64,000 nucleotides of DNA from a virus. Its lineage: Duplodnaviria; Caudoviricetes. The notes beneath the pieces are model-generated. The model ran no database searches, was not told where the DNA came from, and worked only from the letters and a program-made list of their open reading frames with translations. The translations under genes were made by a program, and so were the position numbers. Below are positions 2 to 44,422 of this stretch, one piece after another; within the stretch, counting starts at the first letter, position 1; each line of letters begins with the position of its first letter. The stretch covers positions 3,297-67,296 of the IMG/VR virus record IMGVR_UViG_3300003541_000003; one strand, 5' to 3'.

Positions 2-835
2 CCCCAATTTGGTTTCAGTAGAGACTTACGCACAAACAAGCTCTCACCTTTCCATAGCCGTGAGGCTCTTTCTATCGCTATGGAATTGGCAGATTACCTA
101 CAACCAGATGTATCGGTGTGGCTCGGAGATGTGAATGACTTTACCATGTGGACGGATAAATTCGTCAGGAATCCTGAGTATTACTTTACCGTCCAGCCAG
201 CCCTCATTGAAGCGGCATGGGTCATAAATCAGATTCATGCGCTCTCTAGTGAGTCTGTGGTGATTGAGGGAAATCACGACCAGAGACCACAGATTGCCAT
301 GACCACACATTTGCTGGATGCGTATAACCTACGACCAGCAGACAACATTGATGCAGAGGCAGTTTTATCGGTGGACAACTTGCTGGGGTTGAATCGGATG
401 GGGGTAAAGTATATCGGGGATTGGCAGAACGCAAATTATCATCTCAATAAAAATCTACAATGCACACATGGCAATATCGCTCGTGGTGGTACGCTGGCAA
501 CGGCAAGAGCCATGCTCGACAATCAGGCTATCTCTACCATTTTTGGACACATTCACCGTACCGAGATGGCAAGCAAGACGCTTGTAAATGGAGGCACTAA
601 GACGGTTACGGCTTTCTGCCCAGGGTGTTTATGTAAAACTGATGGAAGTGTTCCTGGCTCGAACAGAGAGGTTCAATGGCAACAGGGTCTCGCTGTGGTC
701 TACTATACAGACGAGGCTTACTCGATTGTGCCATTGCAGATTGAGAATGACACGGTGTTATTCGATGGGATTTTCTTCAAGGCGCATGACTACATGCCAG
801 AACTTAAGAAGTCAACTACTTGGGAGAATTGGTAA
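2..835 (+). CDS. Calcineurin-like metallophosphoesterase (5' end outside window)
   Basis: Frame is open from base 2 (PQFGF...). Motifs GDVND, GNHD, THG, FGHIHR. Confidence 0.85.
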   Translation, partial: PQFGFSRDLRTNKLSPFHSREALSIAMELADYLQPDVSVWLGDVNDFTMWTDKFVRNPEYYFTVQPALIEAAWVINQIHALSSESVVIEGNHDQRPQIAMTTHLLDAYNLRPADNIDAEAVLSVDNLLGLNRMGVKYIGDWQNANYHLNKNLQCTHGNIARGGTLATARAMLDNQAISTIFGHIHRTEMASKTLVNGGTKTVTAFCPGCLCKTDGSVPGSNREVQWQQGLAVVYYTDEAYSIVPLQIENDTVLFDGIFFKAHDYMPELKKSTTWENW

Positions 836-2148
836 TGATAGAATCAAGTTATAAAGACATGGGTAAGGAATACGAGTTTCAAACTTTTATCAGAAAGTAT
901 GCCCCTAAGAATGGTAAGAAATTTGTGGCTGGACAGTCCCATATTCCCGTAACGAAACAGCAGATTACGATGGGGGATAAGATGAACATGATTGAGGCAG
1001 TCCTCAAAGGCTGGCTCACGGAGGGGGAGTACGCAGACCGCTTTGCAAAACAACTCTCGCAGGTAGCAGAGAAACGCTTTGTAACTCTGGCTAATTCAGG
1101 CTCTAGTGCAAATCTTCTGGCAATGCTGGCTATGGCTGAGGCTAATAGAGCAATTGGGTCTCGTGATGTCATCACTTGCGCTACCGGATTCCCCACCACC
1201 GTCAATGCAATCATTCAGGCTGGCTTCTTTCCTAGATTTGTGGATGCTAATTCTCTGACGCTAAATTCTAGTGAGTGGCAAGTGTTGGAAATGATAAAAA
1301 GCCCTGAGGTTGCTGGAGTTATGCTGGCACACACTCTCGGCTTTCCTTTCCGTGAGGATTTGATTGCTGAGGAGTGCAGGAAACATGGAAAGTTTTTTGT
1401 GGTGGATTGCTGTGATGCTCTTGGCTCTGAAATTAACGGACATCCGGTGGGCTACTACGCAGACATCCACACCTATAGCTTTTATCCTGCTCACCACATC
1501 TCCACCGCAGAAGGTGGAGCAGTTGTAACACATGACCCCAAACTGGACAGGCTTATCAAGTCCTACCGTGATTGGGGTAGAGATTGCTGGTGCGGAACGG
1601 GAGTGGATAACACCTGCGGTTTGAGATTCACTCAGCAGTTCGGAGAGTTGCCTTTTGGATATGACCATAAGTACGTCTATTCCAGAATTGGTTACAACCT
1701 GAAAATGACTGACCTTCAAGCCTCTCTTGGGGAATCTCAGATACACAGGTTGAAAGACTTTACGCAAGTTAGACGCATGAACACCATGAAGTTGAGAGAG
1801 GGTCTCAGAGACCTGAACCATCGGATATTCTTCCCTGAGTATCCTGCTGAGACCAATCCCAGCCCCTTCGGATTCCCCATCACCTTCTTGGCTGGAGAAA
1901 CTAAGAAACGGAATGACCTAGTAACCTTCCTGACCAAGCGTAACATTGGCACTCGTCCTGTGTTCGCTGGAAACCTCACTCGTCAGCCAGCTTACATTGA
2001 TGCTGGATTTGTATTTGATGATTTCCCGTTGGATGATGCTGACTACATCATGAACAATACTTTGTGGATTGGGTGTCATCCATCTCTGACGGATGAAATG
2101 ATTACTTATATGATTGAGAGTGTCCAAGACTTTTTCAAAGGAGAATAG
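835..2148 (+). CDS. rfbH: CDP-4-keto-6-deoxyglucose 3-dehydrase (E1, DdhC/RfbH type; PMP and [2Fe-2S])
   Basis: DegT/DnrJ fold motifs NSGSSANL and DCCDALG. SFYPAHH has His at the usual Schiff-base Lys position. Fe-S segment GRDCWC..DNTC..YDHKY. Start placed at the TAATG overlap at 835 (track start 820). Confidence 0.9.
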   Translation: MIESSYKDMGKEYEFQTFIRKYAPKNGKKFVAGQSHIPVTKQQITMGDKMNMIEAVLKGWLTEGEYADRFAKQLSQVAEKRFVTLANSGSSANLLAMLAMAEANRAIGSRDVITCATGFPTTVNAIIQAGFFPRFVDANSLTLNSSEWQVLEMIKSPEVAGVMLAHTLGFPFREDLIAEECRKHGKFFVVDCCDALGSEINGHPVGYYADIHTYSFYPAHHISTAEGGAVVTHDPKLDRLIKSYRDWGRDCWCGTGVDNTCGLRFTQQFGELPFGYDHKYVYSRIGYNLKMTDLQASLGESQIHRLKDFTQVRRMNTMKLREGLRDLNHRIFFPEYPAETNPSPFGFPITFLAGETKKRNDLVTFLTKRNIGTRPVFAGNLTRQPAYIDAGFVFDDFPLDDADYIMNNTLWIGCHPSLTDEMITYMIESVQDFFKGE

Positions 2149-2149
2149 C

Positions 2150-3103
2150 ATGAAAAGAAATGTTTTTATAACTGGCATCACCGGACAGGATGGTTCGTAT
2201 CTGGCTGAACAGCATCTTCTCAGGGGAGATAATGTGCATGGTCTCGTCCGCAGAAATTCCACAAACAACTTGGGAAACATTGAGCACATCAAGGATAGGC
2301 TGGAGCTTTTTGAGGGAGACCTGACTGACCTTAGTGGACTTCGAGAAACTCTCAAACTGATACAACCAAATTACGTTTATAATCTTGCGGCTCAGTCGCA
2401 TGTGGGAACGTCCTATGACCTTCCTGACTACACGATGCAAGTAACGGGTATGGGAGCAATGAATCTCTTTCAGGCTGTGTGGGACATCTGCCCTGAGGCG
2501 CATGTATATCAGGCATCGTCCAGCGAGATGTTTGGACTTACCTCTGGTGGTACGTTTGGACAGAACGAGATGACCAAGTTTGACCCCATCTCTCCATACG
2601 CAGTTGCTAAAATGGCGGCTCACCAGATGGCACATATCTGGCGCAAGCGTGGTCTGTGGGTATCCTGTGGCATCCTGTTCAACCATGAGTCCGAGCGTAG
2701 GGGGGATAAATTCCTGACATCGAAGGTTGCGAAAGCGGCGGCTCGTAGAGAACCTGTAGTGCTTGGCAATCTAACAGCAATTCGAGATTGGGGCTATGCT
2801 CCTGAGTACACCGAGGGCATGACGATGATGCTGGAACATCCTGTGCCTGACGACTTTGTTCTGGCAACAGGAAAGACTTGCTCGGTGAATGATTTTGTGG
2901 AGTTATGCTACGAGGCTATGGGGTTGAATTGGTTGCAGTATGTAACCATCTCGGACGAATTCAAGCGTCCTGTGGAGACTGCTCCCTTAAAAGGAGATGC
3001 CACCAAAGCACATCATGTACTCGGATGGCATCATAAGACGGATGTGGATGGTCTGGCTACTCGAATGGTTGATTACTTCCGTACAACTCAGCCCAACGAC
3101 TAG
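2150..3103 (+). CDS. gmd: GDP-mannose 4,6-dehydratase
   Basis: ITGITGQDGSYLAE, YNLAAQSHV, QASSSEMFG, SPYAVAK, GILFNHES, RDWGYA. RBS GGAG precedes the ATG at 2150. Confidence 0.93.
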   Translation: MKRNVFITGITGQDGSYLAEQHLLRGDNVHGLVRRNSTNNLGNIEHIKDRLELFEGDLTDLSGLRETLKLIQPNYVYNLAAQSHVGTSYDLPDYTMQVTGMGAMNLFQAVWDICPEAHVYQASSSEMFGLTSGGTFGQNEMTKFDPISPYAVAKMAAHQMAHIWRKRGLWVSCGILFNHESERRGDKFLTSKVAKAAARREPVVLGNLTAIRDWGYAPEYTEGMTMMLEHPVPDDFVLATGKTCSVNDFVELCYEAMGLNWLQYVTISDEFKRPVETAPLKGDATKAHHVLGWHHKTDVDGLATRMVDYFRTTQPND

Positions 3104-3629
3104 GTAATACTTTCCAGCCACACAAGGCACAAACCAGAGACGAGGCGGCATTTGGGGCTATCTGTTTTTTCCAGAAGTCCTCGCCCCTCGTCTTTCCATT
3201 TCCAAAGACCTTCTTGCGGATTGAGGATGGGGGCATACAGATTACCTCAAATCCTTTCTCGGACATAGCCAGCATAGCAGAGGCACGAGCCTCAGCCAGT
3301 TGGGTTTGACCGTAAACCTCTCCATGACTGCTACCTTCCACAAGAGCAAATCCTGTAGAACGATGGATACACTCTTTGACTGCCTGACCTACATACTCCA
3401 TTCTGGTAATGGGGTTCTCTGACTGATTGAGTAGAAACTCAAAACTTCGAGTGATGTCTTTCTCAATAATGGTAAGTCCCATGTGTCTGCTACCAGGGTC
3501 TATGCCTACCACCAATGGGTAGGCATTTGACCATTTCATCTTGAACCTCTCCAGCAACTCAGGCGTGTCCTGTTCATGCACCGTTACGGTGTAGTTAGGG
3601 AAGGTGAGAGGTAAGGAGACCTTTATCAT
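3057..3629 (-). CDS. ruvC: RuvC-like Holliday junction resolvase (C-terminal acidic pair substituted)
   Basis: VVGIDPG, VEG, PSSIRKKVFGNG. NAASSL stands where DxxDAL is expected. Confidence 0.75.
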   Translation of the reverse strand: MIKVSLPLTFPNYTVTVHEQDTPELLERFKMKWSNAYPLVVGIDPGSRHMGLTIIEKDITRSFEFLLNQSENPITRMEYVGQAVKECIHRSTGFALVEGSSHGEVYGQTQLAEARASAMLAMSEKGFEVICMPPSSIRKKVFGNGKTRGEDFWKKQIAPNAASSLVCALCGWKVLPSRWAELYGSNQPFE

Positions 3630-4543
3630 TTGGTCTCCTTATCAAAGTTGGCAAGAGCATCTTTGAAAGGAACGAACACGGCATCTTGACCATCCTGAGC
3701 CTGAGCAAACAGCTTGGATATGAACCCATAACTATCGTCTCCCATTTTGATGACACGCTCCCGTTTGGCGATTCCGAGGTTTACACAATCAAAGACTGCG
3801 GATAGACCTGTATGGAATCCCTTACCGGAGAGATAGCACATTTGGAAAGTCTTATCTTCAACTCCCCAACGATTCTTCTCCAGCTTGCCTTCAATGAGGT
3901 ATGAACCATCATCGAATCCTTCCACCCTGCGGAGACGGATGCGAAGGCTTGCCAAAAACTTCTTGGCTGTACCGCCTGTGGTCTCACTTCCCCGACCCCC
4001 GATGATTTGGGAGAGATGGGAGATGACAAACACCACCGTTGGCGTTTCCTTGTTCCTGAGGACGTTTTGGATGCGCCTAGAAAACTGCGCTGTGATGTGT
4101 GCTCTACGACCCATGTTTGCCTCACCCATTTCTCCAGATGTTTCAGAGATTGGTGAGATTGCTCCAACCGAGTCTAGGATGCCCACATGCACATCTTCTC
4201 TGGCAATCACGGTAGCAAGGTGAGTAACGAATTCCTCGTCTGTATCTCCCTTGGCAATCTCAACTGTGCCATCGAATCCTGCATTCCGCATGATGTCCTG
4301 CATGTACTCAGGGTCAAGGGTTTCCAGAGCACCTACACAAATTGTTCCATTCGGAAATAGCCGAGACGAGATGTCCCAGCAGAAGGTAGACTTACCCACA
4401 CCTTCGTACCCATATAACTCAATGATGGTTCTGAGAGGAAAGCCACGCTCTCCTCTGCCATTCTGCAAGGCTCGGTCAAGAGACCAGAACCCTGTTTGCA
4501 CACGTTCAATGCTTGGTAATTTTCCGACAAGTGTTATAGGCAT
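3626..4543 (-). CDS. recA: RecA/UvsX-like recombinase
   Basis: RTIIELYGYEGVGKST (Walker A), ILDSVGA (Walker B), TTGGTAKKFLASLRIRL, EKNR. Confidence 0.9.
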   Translation of the reverse strand: MPITLVGKLPSIERVQTGFWSLDRALQNGRGERGFPLRTIIELYGYEGVGKSTFCWDISSRLFPNGTICVGALETLDPEYMQDIMRNAGFDGTVEIAKGDTDEEFVTHLATVIAREDVHVGILDSVGAISPISETSGEMGEANMGRRAHITAQFSRRIQNVLRNKETPTVVFVISHLSQIIGGRGSETTGGTAKKFLASLRIRLRRVEGFDDGSYLIEGKLEKNRWGVEDKTFQMCYLSGKGFHTGLSAVFDCVNLGIAKRERVIKMGDDSYGFISKLFAQAQDGQDAVFVPFKDALANFDKETK

Positions 4544-7174: not shown

Positions 7175-7248
7175 CTTGAATCTCCTTTCTCTCAAAAGCT
7201 ATTTTCTGAAAAATTAAAAAATCTCACTTTTTTCCAGATTATCCGTAC

Positions 7249-7276: not shown

Positions 7277-7278
7277 GA

Positions 7279-9176: not shown

Positions 9177-9286
9177 CCTAACCGCCCACTTAATATGAGG
9201 TACAACGCCCATAATAGGAAGTATAGCCAGCAGACCACAAATCCTGCTAGAAATCCCTTTTGAAAGTCTTTGCTTGGTGGGTTCAT
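9173..9286 (-). CDS. Small membrane peptide (37 aa, MNPPSKDFQKGFLAGFVVCWLYFLLW...)
   Basis: Hand translated. Coupled to both neighbours by stop/start overlaps. Confidence 0.55.
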   Translation of the reverse strand: MNPPSKDFQKGFLAGFVVCWLYFLLWALYLILSGRLG

Positions 9287-9750
9287 TAGGTCTGCTTTCT
9301 CTGCAACTTGCTCAGGTACTCGAATGCCTCTCCAGCCTTCTCAAACACGATGTCCGCACAGTCAAGAATGAAGGCATGCTTGTGGAGACCTTCTGCATCC
9401 ATCACCACAATGGTGTGCTTTCCAAGCAGACTTGCCCATGCTAATTCCATGCAACTTCCGATGGAGACGATTTTTGCTCCAGAGAAGTCCACCAGCACGA
9501 TGTCTGACTGAGTAACCATCCACTTATCACGTTCTACAATGGCATGGTTGGTGGACACCGGATTGGTGATTCCATTTGTAACCAGAGGTTCACCACGATA
9601 CTTAGGGTCTGTCCTGAGATAGCCTTTGGCAATCATCGGATATAGGCAGTCATAGCCTACATCAGATAGACCTTTTACCAGATTCTCATAGTAGTCAATT
9701 ACTGCCTCCGGTGTCATTCCCGAAATGGGGTGTGCTAAATAAATCTTCAT
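9286..9750 (-). CDS. Nucleoside 2-deoxyribosyltransferase-like protein
   Basis: IYLAHPISG, ERDKWMVTQSDIVLV, SIGSCMELAWA. Confidence 0.8.
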   Translation of the reverse strand: MKIYLAHPISGMTPEAVIDYYENLVKGLSDVGYDCLYPMIAKGYLRTDPKYRGEPLVTNGITNPVSTNHAIVERDKWMVTQSDIVLVDFSGAKIVSIGSCMELAWASLLGKHTIVVMDAEGLHKHAFILDCADIVFEKAGEAFEYLSKLQRKQT

Positions 9751-9751
9751 T

Positions 9752-12867: not shown

Positions 12868-13066
12868 GTTGTATCTCCTTTATAAGTGAATTGTTGTTAC
12901 TTGCCAGTAAGACTACTTCAGTATCGCTATCTTCTTTGTAATAGTTATCACCAGAATCAAATCCAGCAAAATTTTGGAGCAGTTGTCCCAGCCTCAAGTC
13001 TGGATAGCGAATCCACAATGCACGAATGAGGGCTAAAATCCTATCAATTCTGTTTATATCTCTCAT
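12860..13066 (-). CDS. Conserved small phage protein (MRDINRID..W..YPDLRLGQLL)
   Basis: Recognisable recurrent phage motif; function unknown. Confidence 0.7.
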   Translation of the reverse strand: MRDINRIDRILALIRALWIRYPDLRLGQLLQNFAGFDSGDNYYKEDSDTEVVLLASNNNSLIKEIQHD

Positions 13067-13599
13067 TCTAAATCTCCTTTCGTGAATAAAAAGTATGGAT
13101 GCTCTAACTCTGATGTTAGGGTCTCACAGAAGAATCTCCATTGGGGCAACTTGTGATTCTTGCGTTGCTGGTAGATATTCCTGAGAGCCTTGTAATTCGT
13201 TACCATGATTCTTCGTTGTAGGAATCCTTCTGGTAACTCATTCTTAACCTGCTCCAAGTTTCCCTGTTCAATCATGACATTGAGAGAGAAAAGGGTAGAG
13301 GGTAAGATAGGACTTTCAAAATCCTCTTTGGTCAGAGGTTTTTTGGTCAGCGTATACATGGTGGATTCAGAGAGCCACGAGCTACCAATGCGGTAGGTTG
13401 CCATCTGTTGCCACCAGTAACGGGGTGCGTCAATGTCCATCCAGACGGTGATGAATTCGAGAAATTTGTTGTGTCCACCATCCATCTGTGCCAGCCTATT
13501 GCAAACCTCAATCATATCCTCAGCATTTTGATTTCTGCTCAGAGATGTTCCAAGCAGAGCCTCAGCCAATCCATGTTCTTCAATTATTTTAACTTTCAT
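13063..13599 (-). CDS. thyX: Divergent ThyX-like flavin-dependent thymidylate synthase
   Basis: GHNKFLE, APRYWWQQMATYR, SESTMY, LPEGFLQ, NYKALRNIYQQRKNHKLPQW. Canonical RHR and SxRY motifs are altered. Confidence 0.65.
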   Translation of the reverse strand: MKVKIIEEHGLAEALLGTSLSRNQNAEDMIEVCNRLAQMDGGHNKFLEFITVWMDIDAPRYWWQQMATYRIGSSWLSESTMYTLTKKPLTKEDFESPILPSTLFSLNVMIEQGNLEQVKNELPEGFLQRRIMVTNYKALRNIYQQRKNHKLPQWRFFCETLTSELEHPYFLFTKGDLE

Positions 13600-34122: not shown

Positions 34123-34533
34123 ATGAGTACAAAGCATAAAGAGTTTTCTGTGGAGATGCCTGAATCTGATGTAGTATTCTCGTTTGTAATCAATCGTCCT
34201 CTTGTAACCTGTGAGGTTAGCAGGATTGGAGCGAATTACAAATTGATGTCTTGGGGAGTATCCTACTGCCGACCAATGGATAGCTGGAATGCAGAGGTAG
34301 GCGTTAGATTATCAGCTATTTCGGCTGTCAAGAAATTGACTCCAGAGGGAGTTTCTCAGAAGTCCACAATTAAGTATGTTATAGAGCAACTTGAACCTGC
34401 TTTGACTGCTCTGCATGACGAGGCAGAATATGAGCGTAGGAAAGAGTTAGCCTATCTTCGAGCGTATTTCCGTGAGGAATGTGGAGATTGTTGTGATGTA
34501 AATAAGTGTGCTAATGAGGTACTTCGTTCATGA
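34123..34533 (+). CDS. Hypothetical phage protein
   Basis: AAAGGAG RBS. GVSYCRPMDSWNAEVG motif. Confidence 0.7.
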   Translation: MSTKHKEFSVEMPESDVVFSFVINRPLVTCEVSRIGANYKLMSWGVSYCRPMDSWNAEVGVRLSAISAVKKLTPEGVSQKSTIKYVIEQLEPALTALHDEAEYERRKELAYLRAYFREECGDCCDVNKCANEVLRS

Positions 34534-35348
34534 ACCTATCCATGTCCATCTATGACCATGCTATGCAGATAAAGCCGAGCGAGGCTGTAGTTGGATTGGT
34601 GAGCAATAAGAGGATGCCTCCATTGGTAATCTTGGCTGGAGGGCGTGGGACACGACTATTTGGTAGCCGTGCTCCCATGCCTAAGCCGTTAGTAAGAATT
34701 GGAGACAAGCCTATCCTGTGGCACATCATCTCACACTATGCCTCTTATGGCATAAATGAAATCATTATTGCGGCAGGATACAAAGCAAATATGATTCAAA
34801 AATGGGTAGATGAGGAAGATTTTTACCATGATGGACTTAGCGTCTATGTGGCTGATACTGGAGAAAATACCATGACCGGAGGTCGTCTCCGTAGACTTGA
34901 AAGTGTGGTTCAGGATGATTTCTTCCACCTAACCTATGGAGATGGTATCAGTAACGTAGATATAAGTAAGTTGGAGGCTACCTTTGCCCTTCATACTGAC
35001 TGTGAGGCTATAGTTACTGTGGTTCATCCCCCTGCACGTTTTGGGCATGTGGAGTTATGCGACCAGCAGGGTCATTTTGGAAAGATTGCTTGTTTCGATG
35101 AAAAGCCTACGCAGGTGGGTTGGATAAATGGTGGATTTATGATGTTCACCAGAGAAATCTTTAAGCATCTTCATGATGACGGAGATTATCTGGAGAGACA
35201 ACCTATTCAGGAATTGGTGCATGATGGAAAAGTAATGTCGTATGTTCATGAGGGTTTCTGGCAATGTATAGATACTCCTCGTGATGTTGAGTACATGAAT
35301 AAGTTGTTTCATGAATTGTCCTATAAGGAAGAAGGAGAAATAACATGA
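34530..35348 (+). CDS. rfbF: Glucose-1-phosphate cytidylyltransferase
   Basis: LAGGRGTRL, PKPLVRIGDKPILWHI, DTGENTMTGGRL, LTYGDG, INGGF, FWQCIDT. Confidence 0.9.
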   Translation: MNLSMSIYDHAMQIKPSEAVVGLVSNKRMPPLVILAGGRGTRLFGSRAPMPKPLVRIGDKPILWHIISHYASYGINEIIIAAGYKANMIQKWVDEEDFYHDGLSVYVADTGENTMTGGRLRRLESVVQDDFFHLTYGDGISNVDISKLEATFALHTDCEAIVTVVHPPARFGHVELCDQQGHFGKIACFDEKPTQVGWINGGFMMFTREIFKHLHDDGDYLERQPIQELVHDGKVMSYVHEGFWQCIDTPRDVEYMNKLFHELSYKEEGEIT

Positions 35349-36313
35349 ATTGGCAAGGCAAAAAAGTCCTAATAACTGGAGCAAGTGGGTTTCTTGGAAC
35401 ATGGTTGAGCTTATATCTCAACAAGATAGGTGCTGAACCTGTAGGACTATGGCATGACCCCACCTATCCTCGCAAGATGGAGATGATGGGTTGGGTACAC
35501 GCAGACCTCAGAGATTTCGATGACATTCATAGAATTATCGCTGAGGTAAAGCCTGACATCGTTTTCCATTTAGGAGCACAGGCACTACATGGTGTCGGAA
35601 TGAGAGCACCTCTTTATACCATCCAGACGAATGTTATGGGAACAACGAATGTCCTAGAAGCCTGTCGTCAGATTGGTGGAGTGGGAGCAATCGTGGTGTC
35701 TACCAGCGATAAGGCTTACGGGGAGCAACCAAAACTTCCTTACACAGAGTTAGCCTCCATGAATGGCAAAGCACCCTATGAAGTGTCCAAGAGTTGTGCT
35801 GACCTAATCTCTCAGGGGTATCGCAAGACGTTTGTGATGCCCATTTCGGTAATACGCTGTGGAAACATCTTCGGTGGTGGAGACTATAACTTCTCTCGTC
35901 TGATTCCCTACACCATTCGTCAATGCCTGAGGAATGAAACCATTGTCTTGCGGAGTGATGGCACTCTGCTCAGGGATTATGTGTATGTAGAGGACGTTGT
36001 GGATGCCTTCCTCAAAGTAGCGGAGTCTGTTCATGATATTCGCAACTCGGATAATGAGGATTTCAATGTAAGTTACAACAAGCCTCAGACTGTGGAACAG
36101 GTTGTAGTTGGTATTACTGACCTCATGGACTGCTCCGATATTGAGATTAAGACTCAGACAGACCCTAGCCGCTTCTCTGCTGAAATCCCTGAACAATGGT
36201 TGGATAGTACAAAAATTCAGAAAAAACTCGGCTGGCAACCCATTATCGGGTATGATGAGGGTATGCAAAGAACGATTGGCTGGTATAATAAATACGTTGG
36301 AGGTAGCAAATGA
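35345..36313 (+). CDS. rfbG: CDP-glucose 4,6-dehydratase
   Basis: WQGKKVLITGASGFLG, TSDKAY, PYEVSK, RCGNIFGGGD. Confidence 0.88.
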   Translation: MNWQGKKVLITGASGFLGTWLSLYLNKIGAEPVGLWHDPTYPRKMEMMGWVHADLRDFDDIHRIIAEVKPDIVFHLGAQALHGVGMRAPLYTIQTNVMGTTNVLEACRQIGGVGAIVVSTSDKAYGEQPKLPYTELASMNGKAPYEVSKSCADLISQGYRKTFVMPISVIRCGNIFGGGDYNFSRLIPYTIRQCLRNETIVLRSDGTLLRDYVYVEDVVDAFLKVAESVHDIRNSDNEDFNVSYNKPQTVEQVVVGITDLMDCSDIEIKTQTDPSRFSAEIPEQWLDSTKIQKKLGWQPIIGYDEGMQRTIGWYNKYVGGSK

Positions 36314-36762
36314 TTGATGGAGTTAAAGTCATACAACTGGAAAAAGTGCCCGATGAGCGTGGATATGTAAGCCACATGCTCCGTGCAGACAGCCCGAATT
36401 TCAATGGGTTTGGAGAGATTTACTTTTCTGCAATCTACCCAGGGGCGATAAAGGCGTGGCATCTTCATAGAGTTATGGAGCTAAACTATGCCTGTATCTC
36501 TGGAATGATTAAGTTGGTGTTGTATGACAATCGAGAGGAATCTTCTACATATAAAGAGCAGATGGAATTATTTATTGGAGACCTGAATTACTGCCTTGTA
36601 AAGATTCCTCCGATGGTCTGGAACGGCTTTAAGGGCGTTAGTCAATTCACTTCTATTGTAGCGAATTGTGCTACTCATCCTCACACGATGGAAGAATTAG
36701 TCAGGTCTGACCCTCGTTCTGGTTTTCCCGTAGAATATAATTGGGATAGAAAAGATGGCTAA
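36310..36762 (+). CDS. rmlC: RmlC-like NDP-4-keto-6-deoxyhexose epimerase (cupin)
   Basis: DERGY, KAWHLH, VLYDNREES.T, IPPMVWNGF. Confidence 0.82.
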   Translation: MIDGVKVIQLEKVPDERGYVSHMLRADSPNFNGFGEIYFSAIYPGAIKAWHLHRVMELNYACISGMIKLVLYDNREESSTYKEQMELFIGDLNYCLVKIPPMVWNGFKGVSQFTSIVANCATHPHTMEELVRSDPRSGFPVEYNWDRKDG

Positions 36763-36782: not shown

Positions 36783-39146
36783 ATGGCAAAAAGACCACGT
36801 AACTTGGAACAGACAAAGCAACCTGGGCAGATAAGTTTACAAGAACCAGCGTATTTATATAGGCTTGTGCCCCAATGGAGTATTCCCTCTTGGGCTGAGG
36901 CATCCGCATGGAGACGTTTTGTTCGCTACCAGCCCATTGCTATCGTCTGTCGTGAGACGCTTATTGCAAACCTTTTGGCTCTTGATTGGTTGATTGAGCC
37001 TAGAGAAAGCACGATGAGAGATGAGCTAAAAGCGGATATTAATTATTACACCAAGTTATTCAATGATTTTAGTGGTCTTGATTATGCCGGACACCTCTCT
37101 TGGTTATGTACAGACATTCTGGACTTACCCTTCGGTGGAGCGTCTGAGATAGGACGCATGGGAGATACTCCCGATGGAAAAGTAGCATGGGTAGAAAACC
37201 TCGATGCTGGTACGCTATTCCCTACTCTTAATGCAGACTTTCCTATTGGTCAGCGTATTCCAGATTCTCCTCAGGATGTAGTGTATTTCCCTGAGTATGC
37301 AATTGACCGTGTGTATATGTCTCCTCGGTCTGATATTAGGCGTAAAGGATGGGGGATGCCACCGCCTGAGAAGATTTATCTGGCAGTTGATATGCTCAGT
37401 CGTGGAGATAAGTATTATGCAAACCTCCTTCTGGATACACCAGAGGCAGGGATTTTAGATTTGGGAGATATGTCTAAGGCAAGCGCAGAGGATTGGGTTG
37501 GCAGTTTCAAGGCTATGTTGGCTGGTGTTGACCCCCTGAAAATTCCTGTGCTTTATGAACACGAGAACAAGATTGAGTTTATTCCCTTTGGTCAGCCCCC
37601 TTCAAAGATTATGTATGATGAGATTACCATGCGCTATGCGGCTATCGTATGCGCTGGATATGGCATGACCCTTGGAGACATCGGCATGTCGAGTGCAGGT
37701 GGTGGGGGTGGAGACACTCTCGCTGGCACAATCAGAAGTGAGCGCAAGACAAAGCGTACCGGACTTGCTGTCCTGAAATCAATGGTAAGAACGTACTTCA
37801 ATCGCATTCTTCCAGAGGATTTGCAGTTCAAGTTTGTGGATATTGACGATGAAGTAAATGTGAATCTTGGTCGTGCTAGATTGTCCTCAGCCAATGCGTT
37901 TGCCTCCATGATAGCGGCTGGTGTTATGACAGAGGAAGAAGTCAGAGCGCAATGGATTGCTGATGGTCTGGTATCCATTCCGATTTCGGAGAATATCCCA
38001 CCGGAGGCTCAGGCTAAGATTGACCAGAAAACTGCTCTGGCTGATGCAAAGACGAAACGTAATCCTGACACCTCTGATGTGGTTGGAGACCCCGTTGCTC
38101 CTGATAAGGGTGGGTGGGGAGACGTAAAACAGAATCAGGCTAGGATAGATGACCCTCAGCTTTTGGGTAATCTCGATATGGCATTCAAGGCTAGTTTCGA
38201 TAAGATGATGTCAAAGGATTTAGAAACACGCCTTACTCGTCTTGTGTGGAAAGCCGCAAAACTCTTTTATCCACAGGCAAGCGTAGTCGCTAAGTCTCTG
38301 ACACGAGAAGAAGTGCATGAATGGAATCTGTGGTTTGATGAAACCCTATTTGGGATGAGTAAACTTGAAGCTCCAGAGGTAGTAAAGAAAGCCCTCAATG
38401 ATTACATGGATGAGATGGATGCTGAGTTGGAGGAGGATGATTGGTGGGAGCTTGACCTTCCGGTTGGTACGTTAGTGGCGTTGTTCTCTCTGGCATATCT
38501 CTCTGGTATGAGATACTCTGCCTCAGATATGGCTCGTCAGTTATATATTCGTGGATTATTGGATTACCCTAACCTGACAAAGCCTTTCTCCATTGAGAAT
38601 AATCAGAGTATTATGGAAAAGCTCACTAAGATGGCTGAAACTTCCTTGTCTCAAATAAACAATGGAACAAAATATTATGTCAATCGCATTGTACTTTCTA
38701 AGGTTAAGGAAGCCTTTACCTCTGAGGAAGTGCTTTCAAGAATTGTTGATGGAGCTACCGTTGAAGATATATTGTCAGATGTAATGTTTACAAAGGCATT
38801 GGTCTCTGATATACTGGATGAAATCGGACTCACGATGCAGTCTCGTTTGGAAACCATCTCAGAGTTTGAGTTGGATAGAATAACAAACGAGGCTATCGTG
38901 GATGAGTATAGTAAGGTTGGTCTCTCTACAAAGTCGTGGGAATGCTATGGAAAGAATCCTTGTGAGGATTGCCTAGCAAACAGAGCGGCTGGTTACGTTC
39001 CTCTTAGCTTTGTCTATCAAAGTCCGATGGGAGGAGTGCTTAGACCAATAGCTCATCCACATTGCGAGTGTGGAATCCGATTCAATGATTCTGAGCTTGC
39101 GGCTCTTGCAGAGGAAGGTAATTTTGAAATCTGGTATGGTGAATAG
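36783..39146 (+). CDS. Portal protein with C-terminal MuF/gp7-like minor head domain
   Basis: Position after terL; portal-like N-terminal ~430 aa. C-terminal KSW..C.DC..N..PIAHPHCEC is typical of MuF ends. Confidence 0.75.
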   Translation: MAKRPRNLEQTKQPGQISLQEPAYLYRLVPQWSIPSWAEASAWRRFVRYQPIAIVCRETLIANLLALDWLIEPRESTMRDELKADINYYTKLFNDFSGLDYAGHLSWLCTDILDLPFGGASEIGRMGDTPDGKVAWVENLDAGTLFPTLNADFPIGQRIPDSPQDVVYFPEYAIDRVYMSPRSDIRRKGWGMPPPEKIYLAVDMLSRGDKYYANLLLDTPEAGILDLGDMSKASAEDWVGSFKAMLAGVDPLKIPVLYEHENKIEFIPFGQPPSKIMYDEITMRYAAIVCAGYGMTLGDIGMSSAGGGGGDTLAGTIRSERKTKRTGLAVLKSMVRTYFNRILPEDLQFKFVDIDDEVNVNLGRARLSSANAFASMIAAGVMTEEEVRAQWIADGLVSIPISENIPPEAQAKIDQKTALADAKTKRNPDTSDVVGDPVAPDKGGWGDVKQNQARIDDPQLLGNLDMAFKASFDKMMSKDLETRLTRLVWKAAKLFYPQASVVAKSLTREEVHEWNLWFDETLFGMSKLEAPEVVKKALNDYMDEMDAELEEDDWWELDLPVGTLVALFSLAYLSGMRYSASDMARQLYIRGLLDYPNLTKPFSIENNQSIMEKLTKMAETSLSQINNGTKYYVNRIVLSKVKEAFTSEEVLSRIVDGATVEDILSDVMFTKALVSDILDEIGLTMQSRLETISEFELDRITNEAIVDEYSKVGLSTKSWECYGKNPCEDCLANRAAGYVPLSFVYQSPMGGVLRPIAHPHCECGIRFNDSELAALAEEGNFEIWYGE

Positions 39147-39155
39147 GAGGATAAC

Positions 39156-39706: not shown

Positions 39707-39709
39707 TCT

Positions 39710-41512
39710 ATGCCGATTACAAAAGAAAAAGCTCCCAGCACGTTGCCCGATTCTGCAAAAGATTTATTTGTAGGAGCGTGGAATGGCGCATACGAAGGTA
39801 CATGCAAAGAGTCTGAAAGTCAGGATGAGCGTGATGCGTGTGCCAGCAAGATTGCGTGGTCTGCTGTGAAGAATAAGTATGCTAAAGGCGAAGATGGCAC
39901 ATGGCATGCCAAGGCAGACATTCTGAATGAGTTTTCTTTTGTTATCACGAAAGCAAGTATAGATAAATCCTCCGGTCAGATGCGCTGGATGGCAGTTGCC
40001 TCAGACACGGATGAAGATAGTTATAAGCAACGCATGTCCTTGGAACTGTTCAGCGATTTCATCACAAGAGCACAGCAGGATGTTGATGCACCAGTAGAGT
40101 TTCGGTCAGAATACTGGAAGGGTGGAATGCCCTACCTCTCTGTAAGCCACTACGATGATTTTAATGGTATGGGTTCTGCTGGAGAGACGGTCAATATTTA
40201 TATTGATGGAAACCGTCTAAAAGCAAAGGGGATTTGTTATGATACTCCTCTAGGTAGAGCGGCGTTCAATGCCATCAAGGAATCGCTTGACAATCCTAAT
40301 GAAGATAATAAGGTTCGCATTTCTATTGGGTTCTTGGATTGGAAACACACTCATAATGGTGTAACTTTTGAGCGCAAAAGCATTTATGATATATGTCCTG
40401 CATGTCGTAAAAGTAAAGAAAATGTGGTATTCTTAAGAGGGCAGTTGATTCATCTTGCTCTCACCAGAGTGCCTGTAAATCAGCGCACTACTATTGAAGC
40501 GGAGGTAACAAAGTCTATGACAACTAGGAAAGAGGATGCTGAATCCATTGTTGGTGCAGAAGAAGCCGAAAAGCTGGAAGAACTTTCTGTTGCAATGGTT
40601 GGCAAAAGCGAGGCTCTGGTGATTAAGGCAGATAGCCCCAATGAGCCAAATGACCCCCAAGAAGCTAATGATTTGATGGTAGATGGAAATGGTGCTCATA
40701 CCGGAACATCTACTGAGGATGTGCCAAATCCTGACACATCGGAGCAGGTAGACCGACCTAAGCAGGGTGAAGTTGCAAAGTCTGATGGAGAGGTTGCTTA
40801 TTCCTTGCCGTATGGTGGAGCTACTTCATTTGCAGAGGTAGAGGCATGGATGTCTGCTCAGGACAAACTGTACAAGGCGTATGACACTTGGTACACCTTT
40901 GAGACTTTAGCCTCAAATATTATGGGCAAAGAGGACATCGAGGACAAGCCGAAAGCGTTGGCTCAGCTTATGGCTGAGTGCAAGGACAAGCTCGAAACTA
41001 AGTCCTTTGCCATTATGGAAAAAATCGAAAAGGCTATGTTGGAAGGCGAGTCCTTCGTAACTAAGTCTGAGACACATCCTCTGGACGAGGCGTTTGCTCA
41101 GATGAAATCTGCCTTCGATAACACGGTGTCAAGTGAGATGCCGGATGAGGAAAAACTAATGGCTCTACAGCCAGCGTTGGACAATCTGGGAAATGTTCTG
41201 AGGGAATCAGTTAAGGCGCAAGCCGTTGTTACCGCAGACGAACCAGTACCGAGTATGGGTGTAGATGCCACTCAGTTGAAGGCAATCGTGGAAGATGTTA
41301 TTGCTCCGATTGCTGAAAAAGTGAATATACTTATGCAAGCGCAGTCAGCACAGGCTGGTCGGACAGTTGCCCCCCGCCAGGAAACCGTCCCTCAACGTAG
41401 GGGTCTCCCTGCTCAGTCTCCCCTGATTGCTAAAGCGTCCACAAGCGAGACTCCGAAGTTACACGAAATTGTGCTCCGGTCAGTCGGTCTTGGTGGAACA
41501 GAAAGACTGTAA
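39710..41512 (+). CDS. ChaB domain + HK97-type prohead protease + scaffold
   Basis: N-terminal LPDSAKDLF..AWNGAY..KIAWSAVKNKYAKGEDGTW (ChaB); SHY and ISIGF protease motifs; acidic helical C-terminus. Confidence 0.8.
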   Translation: MPITKEKAPSTLPDSAKDLFVGAWNGAYEGTCKESESQDERDACASKIAWSAVKNKYAKGEDGTWHAKADILNEFSFVITKASIDKSSGQMRWMAVASDTDEDSYKQRMSLELFSDFITRAQQDVDAPVEFRSEYWKGGMPYLSVSHYDDFNGMGSAGETVNIYIDGNRLKAKGICYDTPLGRAAFNAIKESLDNPNEDNKVRISIGFLDWKHTHNGVTFERKSIYDICPACRKSKENVVFLRGQLIHLALTRVPVNQRTTIEAEVTKSMTTRKEDAESIVGAEEAEKLEELSVAMVGKSEALVIKADSPNEPNDPQEANDLMVDGNGAHTGTSTEDVPNPDTSEQVDRPKQGEVAKSDGEVAYSLPYGGATSFAEVEAWMSAQDKLYKAYDTWYTFETLASNIMGKEDIEDKPKALAQLMAECKDKLETKSFAIMEKIEKAMLEGESFVTKSETHPLDEAFAQMKSAFDNTVSSEMPDEEKLMALQPALDNLGNVLRESVKAQAVVTADEPVPSMGVDATQLKAIVEDVIAPIAEKVNILMQAQSAQAGRTVAPRQETVPQRRGLPAQSPLIAKASTSETPKLHEIVLRSVGLGGTERL

Positions 41513-41559
41513 GCTGGTTAAGCCTAAAGCGTCAGCGAAACTACTTATTTTAGGAGGTT

Positions 41560-42717
41560 ATGATGGGTGAACCAGTTTTGGATATTGTGAATGGTGGGGC
41601 GTTTGTTCAAAAACAGACTGACCCTGTGATTAGTCCTACTTATGCGTTGCCTGTAGACTATGCGGCTCAGTACCCTGTGCCGTTGGACACCACCGAAATT
41701 ATCGCCATGTGCGAGGAAATTACTGCGTGGAAACGTCTGCCGGAAAAGAAAACTGCATTGAAGCAGGAGTTGTGGCGTGAGTTGAATGAGCTTGCTTTTA
41801 CTAGCGGTTCAAACTATATCGCCTTTGCCGATGGTGTGTGTCCTGAGGAATATTATCACGATGGTGATAATGCTTACGTCAACCTCAAAAACATCGGTGC
41901 TAAGAAATCCCTTGGTATTTCCGATATTATGCAGTCAGCCGCAGTTGCCGCCGCAAATTGGAATGGGATTAATGAACTGGTTGGTGGAGATGCTTCTGGA
42001 GAAGGTGTCCCTGGTGCGTTTAACGCAGGGACTTTCGCTCGTGAGCGTGTCGCTGACCTGAAAGAAAAAGAAGTCCGCTTGGGGATGACCCTTGTGATGA
42101 ATGGTTGGGATAGACTGCTTGTGGAAGGTGATGCCACGACTCGTCCGTTGGAATTTGACGGTATCGAGAATTACTTTGCTAACCGCTCCTGCACAGCCCA
42201 TACCAACTCCAACACCGCATCCGGTACGTTCTCTGCCGCTTCCTTTGACCGCTTCCTGACTGAAAGCTGTGCGAAGCCTACTGCTCTCTTTGGTAATCCT
42301 CAGGTGATGCAGGAGCTTTTAGCGGCTTACTTCCAGTTGGGTGCGGCTGGTTCGCAGGTGATTAACTACAATGACGGAAATCGAATCACCCCTGGCTTTA
42401 ACTTCGCCAGCTTTGTCAACACCGCCATTGGTCGCCTCGAAATTGTTGCAGATTCAAACTTCAATCTGCTCAACGCTGGTGGTGGAGCTATTCAGGGAGC
42501 GATTTATGCCCTGCGTATGTCCCACAACGGTGAACCTCTGGTGTATAAGATTACCCAGATTCCGTTAGCGTTGAAAGACCTGACCCCTGGTTGTACTGAA
42601 ATCGCCTTTGAAATTTGGGCTAAGACTGCGCTTGTTATCAAGCATTGTTGCGCTCATGGCGTGTACACGACTCAGGTTACTGGTCGTATCGCTTCCACTT
42701 GCCCCGTTATTGGGTAA
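41560..42717 (+). CDS. Major capsid protein
   Basis: 385 aa after protease/scaffold. Strong GGAGG RBS, high-expression codon bias, LEFDGI motif. Confidence 0.85.
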   Translation: MMGEPVLDIVNGGAFVQKQTDPVISPTYALPVDYAAQYPVPLDTTEIIAMCEEITAWKRLPEKKTALKQELWRELNELAFTSGSNYIAFADGVCPEEYYHDGDNAYVNLKNIGAKKSLGISDIMQSAAVAAANWNGINELVGGDASGEGVPGAFNAGTFARERVADLKEKEVRLGMTLVMNGWDRLLVEGDATTRPLEFDGIENYFANRSCTAHTNSNTASGTFSAASFDRFLTESCAKPTALFGNPQVMQELLAAYFQLGAAGSQVINYNDGNRITPGFNFASFVNTAIGRLEIVADSNFNLLNAGGGAIQGAIYALRMSHNGEPLVYKITQIPLALKDLTPGCTEIAFEIWAKTALVIKHCCAHGVYTTQVTGRIASTCPVIG

Positions 42718-42730
42718 GATTTAGAATGAA

Positions 42731-42755
42731 GGGGGAGAGCCTAAAAACTCTCCCC
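42731..42755 (+). terminator. GC-rich hairpin after the capsid gene (partial terminator or stabiliser)
   Basis: GGGGAGAG-8nt-CTCTCCCC; no long U run. Confidence 0.55.
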
Positions 42756-42783
42756 TATCTCATAATAAAGAAAGGACGGAAAT

Positions 42784-43032
42784 ATGAGTACAGATAAGTT
42801 TAATGTAGAACCGAAAGCAACCAGTAATTTCTACTTAGCGGCGGCGTTTCTGGCAACGGGAGCGGAGCTTGAAGATGTAGATAGAACAGACCCGAAGCAT
42901 ATTCGGTTTTTGTTTATAGGTACTGGTCTGACCGAGACTGAGAAAGCGTGGGACGCTAAAACTCTGACGGTCAATGCTCGTGAGTATGCAGATTCTATCC
43001 GTGAAATCAAACTTAAAATTCATCAGGAATAA
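42784..43032 (+). CDS. DUF5659-like protein
   Basis: TSNFYLAAAFLATG..IRFLF. Confidence 0.65.
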   Translation: MSTDKFNVEPKATSNFYLAAAFLATGAELEDVDRTDPKHIRFLFIGTGLTETEKAWDAKTLTVNAREYADSIREIKLKIHQE

Positions 43033-43034
43033 CG

Positions 43035-43280
43035 ATGATTAAGAATGATTCTGGTCAGGTCGCAATTGCCTACTATCAACCCAGCCCCAAGATGATTACC
43101 ATTGGAAATAAAGGCATTGTTTTTGTTGCTCAACATGCCGTATCTATGGCATGGGTAGATGAGGCAGATGTGCCACAGGTACTTGCAATTACCAAGTCAT
43201 GCTGTGGAGGAAATATTCATCCAGCTTTTCGCTATGCCACAGAAGGTCAAGTGAGAGTCTGGACAACTGGTGATAGGTGA
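43035..43280 (+). CDS. Small protein with CCGG motif (putative virion protein)
   Basis: VPQVLAITKSCCGG..F; resembles the C-terminus of 52128-52460. Confidence 0.65.
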   Translation: MIKNDSGQVAIAYYQPSPKMITIGNKGIVFVAQHAVSMAWVDEADVPQVLAITKSCCGGNIHPAFRYATEGQVRVWTTGDR

Positions 43281-43293
43281 AAGGAGACTTACA

Positions 43294-43575
43294 ATGTTAA
43301 TTGATTTTGCTACTTTAGCGGCTCAGGGTGCTCCTCTGGTTCTATTCGTTATCGCTCTAACTGAGTGGGTTAAACGAATGGGCGTTTCTGGAGAAGCGGC
43401 TCTCAATGGAATCGCAATGGTTATTGGTCTGATTTTGGGGGTTGGATATAAATTCAGCGTTTTGCCCCCCGTAACCTTTGCTGATTGGTTTGCGGCAGTC
43501 ATCTTCGGATTGATTCTCGGACTGTCCTCAATTGGTCTGTATAAATCTGGTGAGAGTATCGTAGCACGACTTTAA
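43294..43575 (+). CDS. Holin (three TM)
   Basis: VIALTEWVKRMG..IAMVIGLILG..FGLILGLSSIGLY; AAAGGAG RBS. Confidence 0.75.
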   Translation: MLIDFATLAAQGAPLVLFVIALTEWVKRMGVSGEAALNGIAMVIGLILGVGYKFSVLPPVTFADWFAAVIFGLILGLSSIGLYKSGESIVARL

Positions 43576-43600
43576 GACTATGAAGGGAGAATAAGATAAT

Positions 43601-44422
43601 ATGAGAAAAATAGCAGTCAACGGAACAAAAGGTAGACTTGGTAGCACCTTGGTTAGACTTTACCCAGGGTGCTACCCTTTGTTTGCTGATATAACAAACA
43701 AGCAAGCTGTCAAGGAAGAATTGGACAGAGTGAAGCCTGATGTGGTGATTCATTGTGCCGCTTTCACAGATGTGGACGCATGTGAGAATCAGCAGACCAA
43801 GACCTTAAATATAAACATGACCGGAGTGAATAATGTGCGGAGCAGTTTTGAAGGACGTATGGTTCTTATTAGCACGGATTATGTCTTTGATGGTAAGAAG
43901 GGCAAATACAAAGAGGATGCCAAACTCAATCCCATAAGCATATACGGAATGAGCAAGTTTGGTGGAGAGGGAGTGCTGGACATTTGGGACAGTCCTGAGG
44001 ACGTAATTATCCGTACCACCCTTCTCTACGGAGCGCAGAGCAAGCCAGATTTTGTGAGTAAACTTCTGGAGCAATTCGCCTCAACCGAAGGAGTTATTCC
44101 TGTAACCAACCGTCTCTATGGTAATCCTACCAATGTAGAGCATCTGGCTATGGGTATCATGGACTTGCTCAGTTTGCCGAAAGCTCCAAGAGTAGTGAAT
44201 ATCGCTGGAACAGATTACATCAATCGCTATGAGTTTGCTCTCATGATAGCGGATGTCTTTGGTCTGGATAAGGAAAGAATCGTTCCAAATCATGCTCCTC
44301 GAAAAGAAGGTGCGCCAAGACCGGAGAAGGCTGGACTAGATTTATCTCTGGCTAAGAAGTTGAAGATACGTCTCTTTCCTATTCATGAAGGATTGCTCTT
44401 GGCGAGGCAACTATGGAATTAG
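43601..44422 (+). CDS. rmlD: RmlD-like NDP-4-keto-sugar reductase
   Basis: GTKGRLG, HCAAFTDVDACE, ISTDYVFDG, YGMSK. Confidence 0.9.
   Translation: MRKIAVNGTKGRLGSTLVRLYPGCYPLFADITNKQAVKEELDRVKPDVVIHCAAFTDVDACENQQTKTLNINMTGVNNVRSSFEGRMVLISTDYVFDGKKGKYKEDAKLNPISIYGMSKFGGEGVLDIWDSPEDVIIRTTLLYGAQSKPDFVSKLLEQFASTEGVIPVTNRLYGNPTNVEHLAMGIMDLLSLPKAPRVVNIAGTDYINRYEFALMIADVFGLDKERIVPNHAPRKEGAPRPEKAGLDLSLAKKLKIRLFPIHEGLLLARQLWN

Follow-up and report, generated by a model that had tools for sequence, protein, structure and literature searches.

Background

In bacteria, CDP-4-keto-3,6-dideoxyglucose is the common intermediate of the CDP-3,6-dideoxyhexose pathways (PMC5399914), and the E1 enzymes carry an iron-sulfur motif, C-X57-C-X-C-X7-C (PMC8987622). 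Here we have analysed a 64,000-nt stretch (the window) of the tailed-phage record IMGVR_UViG_3300003541_000003, which holds a complete early-plus-late pathway of this kind in one phage, dispersed over three sites of the late operon, plus an extra GDP-mannose 4,6-dehydratase (GMD). With moderate confidence, we read these genes as part of a glycan assembly line, expressed late and soluble throughout, for which part of the sugar-nucleotide pool would be phage-made and a virion protein would probably be the acceptor.

The first three enzyme families, and the His220 and four-Cys signature of E1, are common to the phage and the Yersinia/Salmonella CDP-3,6-dideoxyhexose pathway, and a cupin and a reductase of the short-chain dehydrogenase/reductase (SDR) type could fill the AscE and AscF roles of the Yersinia CDP-ascarylose pathway. 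Unlike the bacterial pathway, the phage set has no E3 (DdhD/AscD), is virus-encoded within a structural operon at three sites, and is linked to soluble glycosyltransferases (GTs) rather than to the Wzx/Wzy O-antigen machinery; moreover, its cupin is of a distinct 149-aa subfamily, and its RfbF and RfbG stay below the equivalog cut-offs. With the GDP-colitose pathway the phage has GMD in common, but its 3-dehydratase is of the iron-sulfur E1 type, and no ColC is seen in the scanned late genes. The actinomycete TDP-sugar 3-dehydratases of the SpnQ type are likewise [2Fe-2S] E1 homologues without a dedicated E3, SpnQ being served by general ferredoxin/flavodoxin reductase pairs instead (PMC8987622), but they belong to dTDP-2,6-dideoxy sugars and secondary metabolism, while the phage enzyme is much nearer to the CDP-specific E1.

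Viruses that make sugar nucleotides with enzymes of their own have been described before, and so has the glycosylation of virions. Giant viruses encode nucleotide-sugar synthesis, GMD included, and GTs for their own capsid, independent of host glycosylation, as seen in the GMD and GDP-fucose/rhamnose enzymes of chloroviruses and in the viosamine, rhamnose and bacillosamine pathways of mimivirus. The present case differs in being a 67-kb tailed phage with a CDP-linked 3,6-dideoxy route and an iron-sulfur E1, and giant viruses are not known to have a CDP-linked iron-sulfur E1 route. Among tailed phages, the mycobacteriophages Che8, Corndog and Myrna use, as far as is known, host sugar nucleotides. 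These three carry, as the present phage does, GTs and an O-methyltransferase-type gene, whose products act on the capsid and the tail tube (Freeman et al. 2023, as cited in PMC11600133 and PMC12363180), and cluster O has three tandem GTs downstream of a methyltransferase gene (PMC11600133). Unlike the mycobacteriophage systems, the present phage, whose source is wetland metagenomes, has a six-enzyme supply of its own for rare deoxy sugars, and its GT1-like protein, the one GT compared, is without detectable similarity to deposited phages. The literature search brought up no account of an E1 or of a 3,6-dideoxyhexose pathway in phages.

Sugar-supply enzymes of the late strand

A preliminary description of this DNA had named five sugar enzymes on the late strand, three of them between terL and portal, one behind the holin and one at the start of the window. 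All five are present in this setting, and GMD beside E1 is a sixth enzyme, absent from that list. The enzymes and the genes around them are as follows.

835–2148, plus strand: E1-type PMP (pyridoxamine phosphate)/[2Fe-2S] nucleotide-sugar 3-dehydratase of the RfbH/DdhC/AscC family (NF011936, 3BCX, His/Cys signature)
2114–3103, plus strand, likely ATG at 2150: GMD (PF16363, 314 bits), start 2 nt past the E1 stop
34530–35348, plus strand: glucose-1-phosphate cytidylyltransferase-like protein, RfbF/DdhA type (TIGR02623, 1TZF)
35345–36313, plus strand: CDP-glucose 4,6-dehydratase-like protein, RfbG/DdhB type (TIGR02622, 1WVG, 1RKX)
36310–36762, plus strand: RmlC-superfamily cupin of 149/150 aa, putative 5-(3,5-)epimerase (PF00908, PF05523, 3EJK)
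43601–44422, plus strand: RmlD-like NAD(P)H 4-ketoreductase (PF04321, 168 bits), first cassette gene
32591–34111, plus strand: terL
36783–39146, plus strand: portal, weak match
41560–42717, plus strand: major capsid protein (MCP; phrog_212 at 5.7e-05)
43270–43575: protein with three transmembrane (TM) segments, PHROG 'holin' family, between MCP and the RmlD-like gene

We have compared E1 with profiles and structures of its family. It passes the cut-off of the NCBI RfbH equivalog NF011936 (484.7 bits; cut-off 423), matches the DegT/aspartate-aminotransferase fold (PF01041, 2.4e-68) and aligns with the Yersinia E1 structure 3BCX at 5e-110 over residues 26–434, while ColD, which is without an iron-sulfur cluster, is matched at 7e-30 only. 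In the motif SFYPAHH, His220 replaces the Schiff-base Lys, with FYPAHH aligned to FYPAHH of 3BCX, and the iron-sulfur ligands are Cys193, 251, 253 and 261, in the same numbering as in the Yersinia E1. These residues are shared by other viral E1 copies long enough to align, where His220 and Cys251/253/261 are present in 78/78 and Cys193 in 75/78. This signature supports the assignment of E1 as a C3-deoxygenase and not an aminotransferase, in agreement with the preliminary description.

In the tree, E1 groups with L003, L004 and L029 in a clade of phage sequences only, and at least 84 IMG/VR stretches encode E1 relatives. Among deposited phages there are eight matching records, all at no more than 42% identity: Synechococcus phages, one 2.6-kb Salmonella fragment and three metagenomic/single-cell viral records. 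E1-bearing systems are rare in deposited phages and common in uncultured ones, and the claim that so complete a pathway is unusual in a tailed phage needs this qualification.

The remaining enzymes can be assigned with less precision, since a profile check puts E1 above its equivalog cut-off but RfbF, RfbG and the RmlD-like protein below theirs. The RfbF-like protein reaches 200.8 bits against TIGR02623 (cut-off 300), the next family giving 82 bits, and its best PDB match is 1TZF, the Salmonella Glc-1-P cytidylyltransferase (2e-45; next 3e-17). Its start overlaps the stop of orf150, and in the tree it groups with the RfbFs that capsid relatives have in their cassettes, in a clade made up of phage sequences only. 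The RfbG-like protein, whose gene overlaps each neighbour by 4 nt, scores 226.5 bits against TIGR02622 (cut-off 278), and in the PDB it is closest to two CDP-glucose 4,6-dehydratases, 1WVG (1.5e-49) and 1RKX (5e-45). Despite these sub-cut-off scores, each of the two proteins is clearly closest to the CDP-glucose enzymes. The RmlD-like protein scores 163 bits against TIGR01214 (cut-off 224) and matches the PDB RmlDs at 1.5e-29; it belongs to a mostly phage clade and occupies the same first cassette position in relatives.

As for the cupin, it matches PF00908 at 37 bits and PF05523 at 27.6 bits, and in the PDB it is closest to 3EJK, which carries the label 'dTDP sugar isomerase' (4.6e-31). Its family is abundant, with 60–65% identity across phyla, and adjoins E1 in the cellular loci L144, L116 and L094. 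In Chloracidobacterium, the family fills the RmlC slot of a nucleotidyltransferase-dehydratase-cupin-reductase-GT4 operon, which supports an epimerase role.

GMD scores 308 bits against TIGR01472 (cut-off 415), matches the PDB GMDs 1N7G (4e-76) and 1RPN (1e-71), and has the SSE, YxxxK and NHESxRRG motifs aligned. Its homologue in L003 (76% identity) and in L004 (55%) adjoins E1 as well. Apart from this, in another record (G041:C1:21946-23982; IMG/VR 3300032156_000002) the GMD homologue appears as two halves about 1 kb apart within one 957-aa frame, which may reflect an intein or another in-frame insertion.

The capsid-adjacent glycan cassette

The RmlD-like gene opens a 6.3-kb run that ends at 49940 and contains the following genes.

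44413–45144, plus strand: GT2 glycosyltransferase, cassette core (PF00535, 3.4e-17)
45132–46046, plus strand: GT1-like glycosyltransferase (Glyco_trans_1_2, CgeB-like), cassette core (PF13524, 2.9e-25)
46027–46350, plus strand: orf107, small Cys/His-rich protein, cassette core (conserved, no Pfam family)
46347–46940, plus strand: S-adenosylmethionine-dependent methyltransferase (PF08241, 1.8e-11; PF13489)
46930–47964, plus strand: GT4-like glycosyltransferase (PF13439, weak, 27.9 bits)
47948–49117, plus strand: GT4 glycosyltransferase (PF00534, 3.9e-20)
49089–49940, plus strand: GT2 glycosyltransferase, last cassette gene (PF00535, 3.4e-17)

The late-operon genes of the module have the same orientation and overlapping stops and starts, and the five GTs and the methyltransferase sit between MCP and the neck genes. 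This position is conserved. A profile search with MCP gave 41 IMG/VR relatives at 54–69% identity, 30 of them with at least 5 kb downstream, and in 24/30 the genes GT2-GT1-orf107 stand right behind MCP and its small neighbours. In seven IMG/VR phages (MCP 55–70% identical), the whole block is contiguous and immediately 3' of MCP, in the order RmlD-GT2-GT1-orf107-methyltransferase-RfbF-RfbG-cupin-E1-GT4-GT4-GT2. The cassettes of relatives end at homologues of the head-completion/neck genes at 50180–51773. They hold copies of the GT4-like protein at 38–50% identity in the same order, and the methyltransferase and the GT4 at 47948–49117 are kept in them too.

In the phage analysed here, the genes occupy three sites: between terL and portal, behind the capsid gene, and at the end of the tail operon. 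The last of these follows from the joining of the record at its ends: 66 bases are common to both ends, which fits a circular or circularly permuted genome, so that E1 and GMD are the last late-strand genes, behind the tail genes. The preliminary description had called the pathway scattered through the late genes; this is true of this phage, but in its relatives the same genes form one capsid-adjacent block.

Proposed route and product

Starting from the observed gene identities, motifs, lack of an E3, co-orientation and capsid-linked conservation, we propose a route in which substrates, electron donor, stereochemistry and acceptor are tentative assignments. The RfbF-like enzyme would produce CDP-glucose, which the RfbG-like enzyme would convert to CDP-4-keto-6-deoxyglucose. 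E1 would then take off the 3-OH with electrons drawn from the ferredoxin or flavodoxin systems that serve the host in general, a donor that is proposed because no E3 is encoded. The 150-aa cupin would invert C5, and the RmlD-like reductase would act at C4 to give a CDP-3,6-dideoxy-L-hexose. In parallel, GMD would supply a GDP-6-deoxyhexose precursor (GDP-4-keto-6-deoxymannose). The five membrane-free GTs and the methyltransferase would finally assemble an oligosaccharide carrying methyl groups; its acceptor would be soluble and is most likely a protein of the virion, for instance the capsid.

Ascarylose is 3-deoxy-L-rhamnose, i.e., 3,6-dideoxy-L-arabino-hexose. If one starts from D-glucose and leaves C2 untouched, loss of the hydroxyl at C3, together with a C5 inversion and a C4 reduction of the RmlD type, leads to the L-arabino configuration, while the opposite reduction leads to L-lyxo. 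Since ascarylose is 3-deoxy-L-rhamnose, an ascarylose-type product is logical provided that RmlC and RmlD are a guide to how the cupin and the reductase act, and the product would be ascarylose if both keep the Rml-type stereochemistry. Ascarylose is thus a logical but unproven product, as stereochemistry is not readable from sequence. In the scanned late genes, no ColC- or GFS-like SDR and no dedicated reductase partner for GMD were seen, and we can only speculate that the GMD product may be handled by the RmlD-like enzyme or by a side activity of GMD itself.

That the five enzymes named in the preliminary description belong to one pathway is borne out by their contiguity both in the related phages and in cells. 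In three cellular loci, L144, L116 and L094 (one Helarchaeota metagenome-assembled genome and two Chloroflexota ones), the five-gene set is contiguous; the order in L144 is RfbF-RfbG-cupin-RmlD-E1, and it is similar in the other two. In addition, RfbF and RfbG lie beside E1 in 39–40 of the 46 bacterial loci with full flanks.

Several observations weigh against reading the genes as one soluble assembly line with a virion acceptor. E1 adjoins GMD, not RfbG, in this phage and in L003 and L004. RfbF, RfbG, RmlD and GMD are all under the NCBI equivalog cut-offs, and their nucleotide and sugar specificity could therefore differ. Rather than a canonical RmlC, the cupin is a member of a separate 149-aa subfamily; in a weak alignment, the RmlC catalytic Tyr is left unaligned and the H-x-H motif resembles that of ketoisomerases. 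As to the GTs, the GT1-like protein has no tblastn match at 1e-8 among 50,697 deposited phage records. The C-termini of MCP are equally conserved with or without a cassette, which gives no hint of an acceptor site. Finally, the tree nests the cupin of the window among cellular sequences, apart from the cassette cupins, which points to a mosaic history. Since the trees of RfbF, RmlD, E1, GT1-like, GT4 and the methyltransferase group these with the cassette copies of related phages, while that of the cupin does not, the three-site layout is, as judged from these placements, a rearranged and partly replaced version of the contiguous cassette.

Probable target of the glycan

We have considered which molecule may carry the glycan. 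In a hydrophobicity scan of the 13 module proteins (GTs and sugar enzymes), no TM-like segment was found, and family searches with the 13 module genes gave no match to a flippase, a polymerase, a polyprenyl-phosphate priming transferase or a GtrA/B-like family. Among 19 early-strand proteins and one late-strand open reading frame (ORF) compared with Pfam, there is no hydroxymethylase, the DNA-modification genes being C5 and N6/N4 methyltransferases. The late operon has the following signals, and a scan of 32–50 kb found no comparable promoter and no strong terminator.

31420–31447, plus strand: sigma-70-type promoter of perfect consensus (12/12 hexamer positions), preceding the late operon
42732–42755: hairpin just 3' of MCP

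Because of the lack of TM segments, of flippase, polymerase and priming families and of a DNA hydroxymethylase, and because of the single promoter and the capsid-adjacent position, a soluble virion protein is favoured as the acceptor, MCP being the most likely one by inference. The mycobacteriophage systems described above are a precedent for such a target.

The alternative that survives best, though we consider it unlikely, is that a glycan is indeed made but is destined for something other than the virion, namely a host envelope polymer or receptor (for superinfection block or progeny release), phage DNA or a small molecule. Both DNA and the O-antigen of the host are documented substrates of phage GTs (Markine-Goriaynoff 2004 and Pyle 2024, as cited in PMC12619734), and in the present lineage no MCP sequence feature tracks the presence of the cassette. 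Position alone is no proof of a capsid function either, considering that the post-capsid site of L187 carries unrelated cargo. Against these points stand the missing TM-like segments and the missing flippase, polymerase, priming-transferase and GtrA/B-like families among the 13 module genes for a host envelope target, the missing hydroxymethylase among the scanned early-strand proteins for a DNA target, and the location of the genes within the head module, overlapping, co-oriented and next to MCP in 24/30 relatives.

One route or two

A second alternative, which we regard as rather improbable, divides the enzymes between two sugar routes. RfbF-RfbG-cupin and the RmlD-like enzyme would form a four-gene operon of the Chloracidobacterium type leading to a CDP-6-deoxy-L-hexose, and E1-GMD would lead to a GDP-3,6-dideoxyhexose of the colitose type, with E1 as an iron-sulfur stand-in for ColD. 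This would account for the abutting E1 and GMD genes here and in L003 and L004, the two genes being also close in L035 and L021, and for the complete phage genomes G010 and G012, which have E1 and GMD and no RfbG-type dehydratase. It also agrees with the 149-aa cupin family, which does its work without E1 in the Chloracidobacterium operon, and with the cassettes of L166, L181, L182 and L195, where ColD-like dehydratases hold the E1 slot.

On the other hand, E1 is far nearer to the CDP-specific Yersinia E1 (5e-110) than to ColD (7e-30) and passes the RfbH equivalog cut-off. The contiguous cassettes place E1 directly after RfbF-RfbG-cupin, with no GMD within the 21-kb loci, although three of the contiguous-cassette records (G016, G039 and G041) do have a GMD gene at another place of the contig. 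The L018 group pairs GMD with an SDR and a fucosyltransferase of its own, which shows that GMD and E1 can be independent neighbours. Moreover, no E1-type enzyme is known to use a GDP-sugar (PMC8987622). For CDP-4-keto-6-deoxy-D-glucose as the putative substrate of E1, the support comes from the RfbF and RfbG encoded with it and from the conserved gene neighbourhoods. Overall, we prefer to place E1 in the single CDP-linked route proposed above.

Electron supply without E3

The preliminary description had called for a search of the rest of the genome for an E3, and we have found none: PF00175, PF00111, PF00970, PF00258 and PF00037 are all without a match in the whole genome, i.e., there is no NAD- or FAD-binding domain of the FNR (ferredoxin-NADP reductase) type, plant-type ferredoxin, flavodoxin or 4Fe-4S ferredoxin domain. 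This is not peculiar to one phage. PF00175 (NAD_binding_1) occurs in 0/50 E1-bearing virus records, 22 of which are at least 90% complete. Among bacterial E1 loci, the 80 closest to the phage E1 were scanned by motif within ±10 kb, and no E3 was confirmed: the scans picked up radical-SAM/SPASM proteins, one methyltransferase and a 512-aa ORF that is unverified; in one complete bacterial chromosome there is no PF00175 domain near E1. In this E1 clade, then, members without E3 are the normal case, whether they come from phages or from bacteria. The earlier suggestion that the phage borrows a host reductase is reasonable in the light of the SpnQ precedent (PMC8987622), but it would describe the common state of the clade and not something special to this phage.

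The weakest alternative is that E1 without E3 is idle or an SpnQ-like transaminase, with a 6-deoxy or 4-amino-4,6-dideoxy hexose as the final sugar: no E3 is encoded and SpnQ does transaminate when its reductase is absent (PMC8987622), but the Yersinia E1 shows no such transamination under similar conditions (PMC8987622), E3-less E1 operons are usual in bacteria, and the strict conservation of the cluster ligands in viral E1s (three Cys and His220 in all 78, Cys193 in all but three) argues for selection on the iron-sulfur chemistry and makes an idle E1 unlikely, so that we consider this very improbable.

Two candidates near the module were tried as redox partners and rejected. A 227-aa protein encoded two genes 5' of E1 (genome bases 1732–2415; kept in L003) has hydrophobic segments at the N-terminal end and a PAS domain at the C-terminal end; as an electron donor, this PAS protein is rejected, being membrane-anchored and without the LOV flavin motif. 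The other candidate, orf107 as a small redox carrier, is rejected since it is present also in cassettes without any 3-dehydratase.

Variation of the cassette in other phages

The sugar-supply genes of the cassettes are variable. Cassettes with an iron-sulfur E1 are found in L172, L176, L192, L193, L197 and L199, plus L022, L027 and L050. A ColD-like dehydratase, with the His kept and the Cys missing, takes the E1 slot in L166, L181, L182 and L195, in which no GMD occurs within the 10-kb flanks, and L165, L173, L194 and L200 have no dehydratase within the 10-kb flank. A 3-dehydratase of either type is thus present in at least 13/24 cassettes. In L187 (11233-18791), the post-MCP site holds a NUMOD3 homing-endonuclease-type protein, an ADP-ribosyltransferase of the exoenzyme family and a 1022-aa ddrB-ParB protein, and no glycan cassette. 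Because of this cargo, the post-MCP site is to be seen as a general cargo hotspot.

A different arrangement is found in L018 (IMG/VR 3300034012_000625), a complete 65,258-bp phage, with a similar module in L016, L017 and L006. One overlapping operon (L018:4070-13919) encodes a GT2, a GT10 fucosyltransferase, GMD, an SDR, a GT2, an Anp1-like GT, an iron-sulfur E1, a thiamine diphosphate (ThDP) enzyme and an SDR. The ThDP enzyme has 593 aa and is acetolactate-synthase-like and YerE-like, and the SDR next to GMD is fucose-synthase-like. An RfbG-type dehydratase is missing from L018, for which no record-wide search for RfbF was made. In the complete ~65-kb phages of this group, E1 is thus linked to the ThDP enzyme and an SDR, beside GMD/SDR/GT10. 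We take the linkage of E1, ThDP enzyme and SDR to be the YerE/YerF arrangement of yersiniose synthesis.

Genome context

The 67,296-bp record has a CheckV completeness of 100%, and the window spans its bases 3297–67296. The minus strand carries replication and DNA-modification genes at ~3–26 kb, including RuvC, a DnaG-type zinc-finger protein (putative primase), C5 and N6/N4 DNA methyltransferases, a ThyX-like protein and a RecA homologue, the last being called via the Pfam match of its L003 counterpart. In the related contig L003, genes for PolA and DnaB are also on the early strand. The late strand is the plus strand; it starts from ~27 kb, crosses the record ends into window 1–3103, and contains a GH25-SH3 endolysin, terL, the weakly supported portal, MCP, and neck and tail genes. 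Further features are listed below.

9286–9750 and 13063–13599, minus strand: nucleoside 2-deoxyribosyltransferase-like protein and weak ThyX-like protein, in the early region near the C5 and N6/N4 DNA methyltransferases
39710–41512: 600-aa protein with an N-terminal ChaB domain (2e-11), just 5' of MCP

The ChaB-domain protein is kept in all capsid relatives, and a scaffold, a protease or another role are candidates for it. The palindrome TRACACSGTGTYA has ten exact copies in the window, where 0.16 would be expected by chance. They lie at 748, 7263, 12206, 21507, 27160, 29578, 31317, 32060, 41119 and 47346; one is 75 nt 5' of the E1 start, one ~100 nt 5' of the consensus late promoter, and another falls within the first GT4 gene.

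As for the source, the DNA has been found again in wetland and sediment metagenomes of several studies, and no RNA is among the sequencing runs listed as holding the phage. Neither a blastn search with the terL–portal block nor a tblastn search with MCP gave a match in the deposited phage records (50,697 in each case). The closest bacterial E1 sequences are 43–48% identical and come from many phyla, giving no host inference.

Significance

Based on the above analyses, we tentatively suggest, as a possible but less well-founded view than the assembly line itself, that there is an uncultured lineage of 50–110-kb phages with a capsid-adjacent 'O-antigen-like' island, in which the core (GT2, CgeB-like GT, orf107) is conserved and the sugar modules (E1, ColD-like or none) are swapped, and whose virions would show diversifying, E3-less 3,6-dideoxy sugars. 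The surface glycans of these phages would then be under diversifying selection as bacterial O-antigens are; the yersiniose-like module belongs to other E1 phages that are not shown to share the capsid lineage. The variable island beside the capsid gene offers a testable system, as the sugar-supply genes vary and the transferase core is constant. A compact, E3-independent route to CDP-3,6-dideoxyhexoses with soluble transferases would also be of interest for glycoengineering. If common phages of the environment indeed coat their virions with rare dideoxy sugars of their own making, virion glycosylation would be widespread and variable in its sugars rather than a mycobacteriophage curiosity, and this would matter for adsorption, for the avoidance of decoys, for grazing, and for the stability and antigenicity of the particles.

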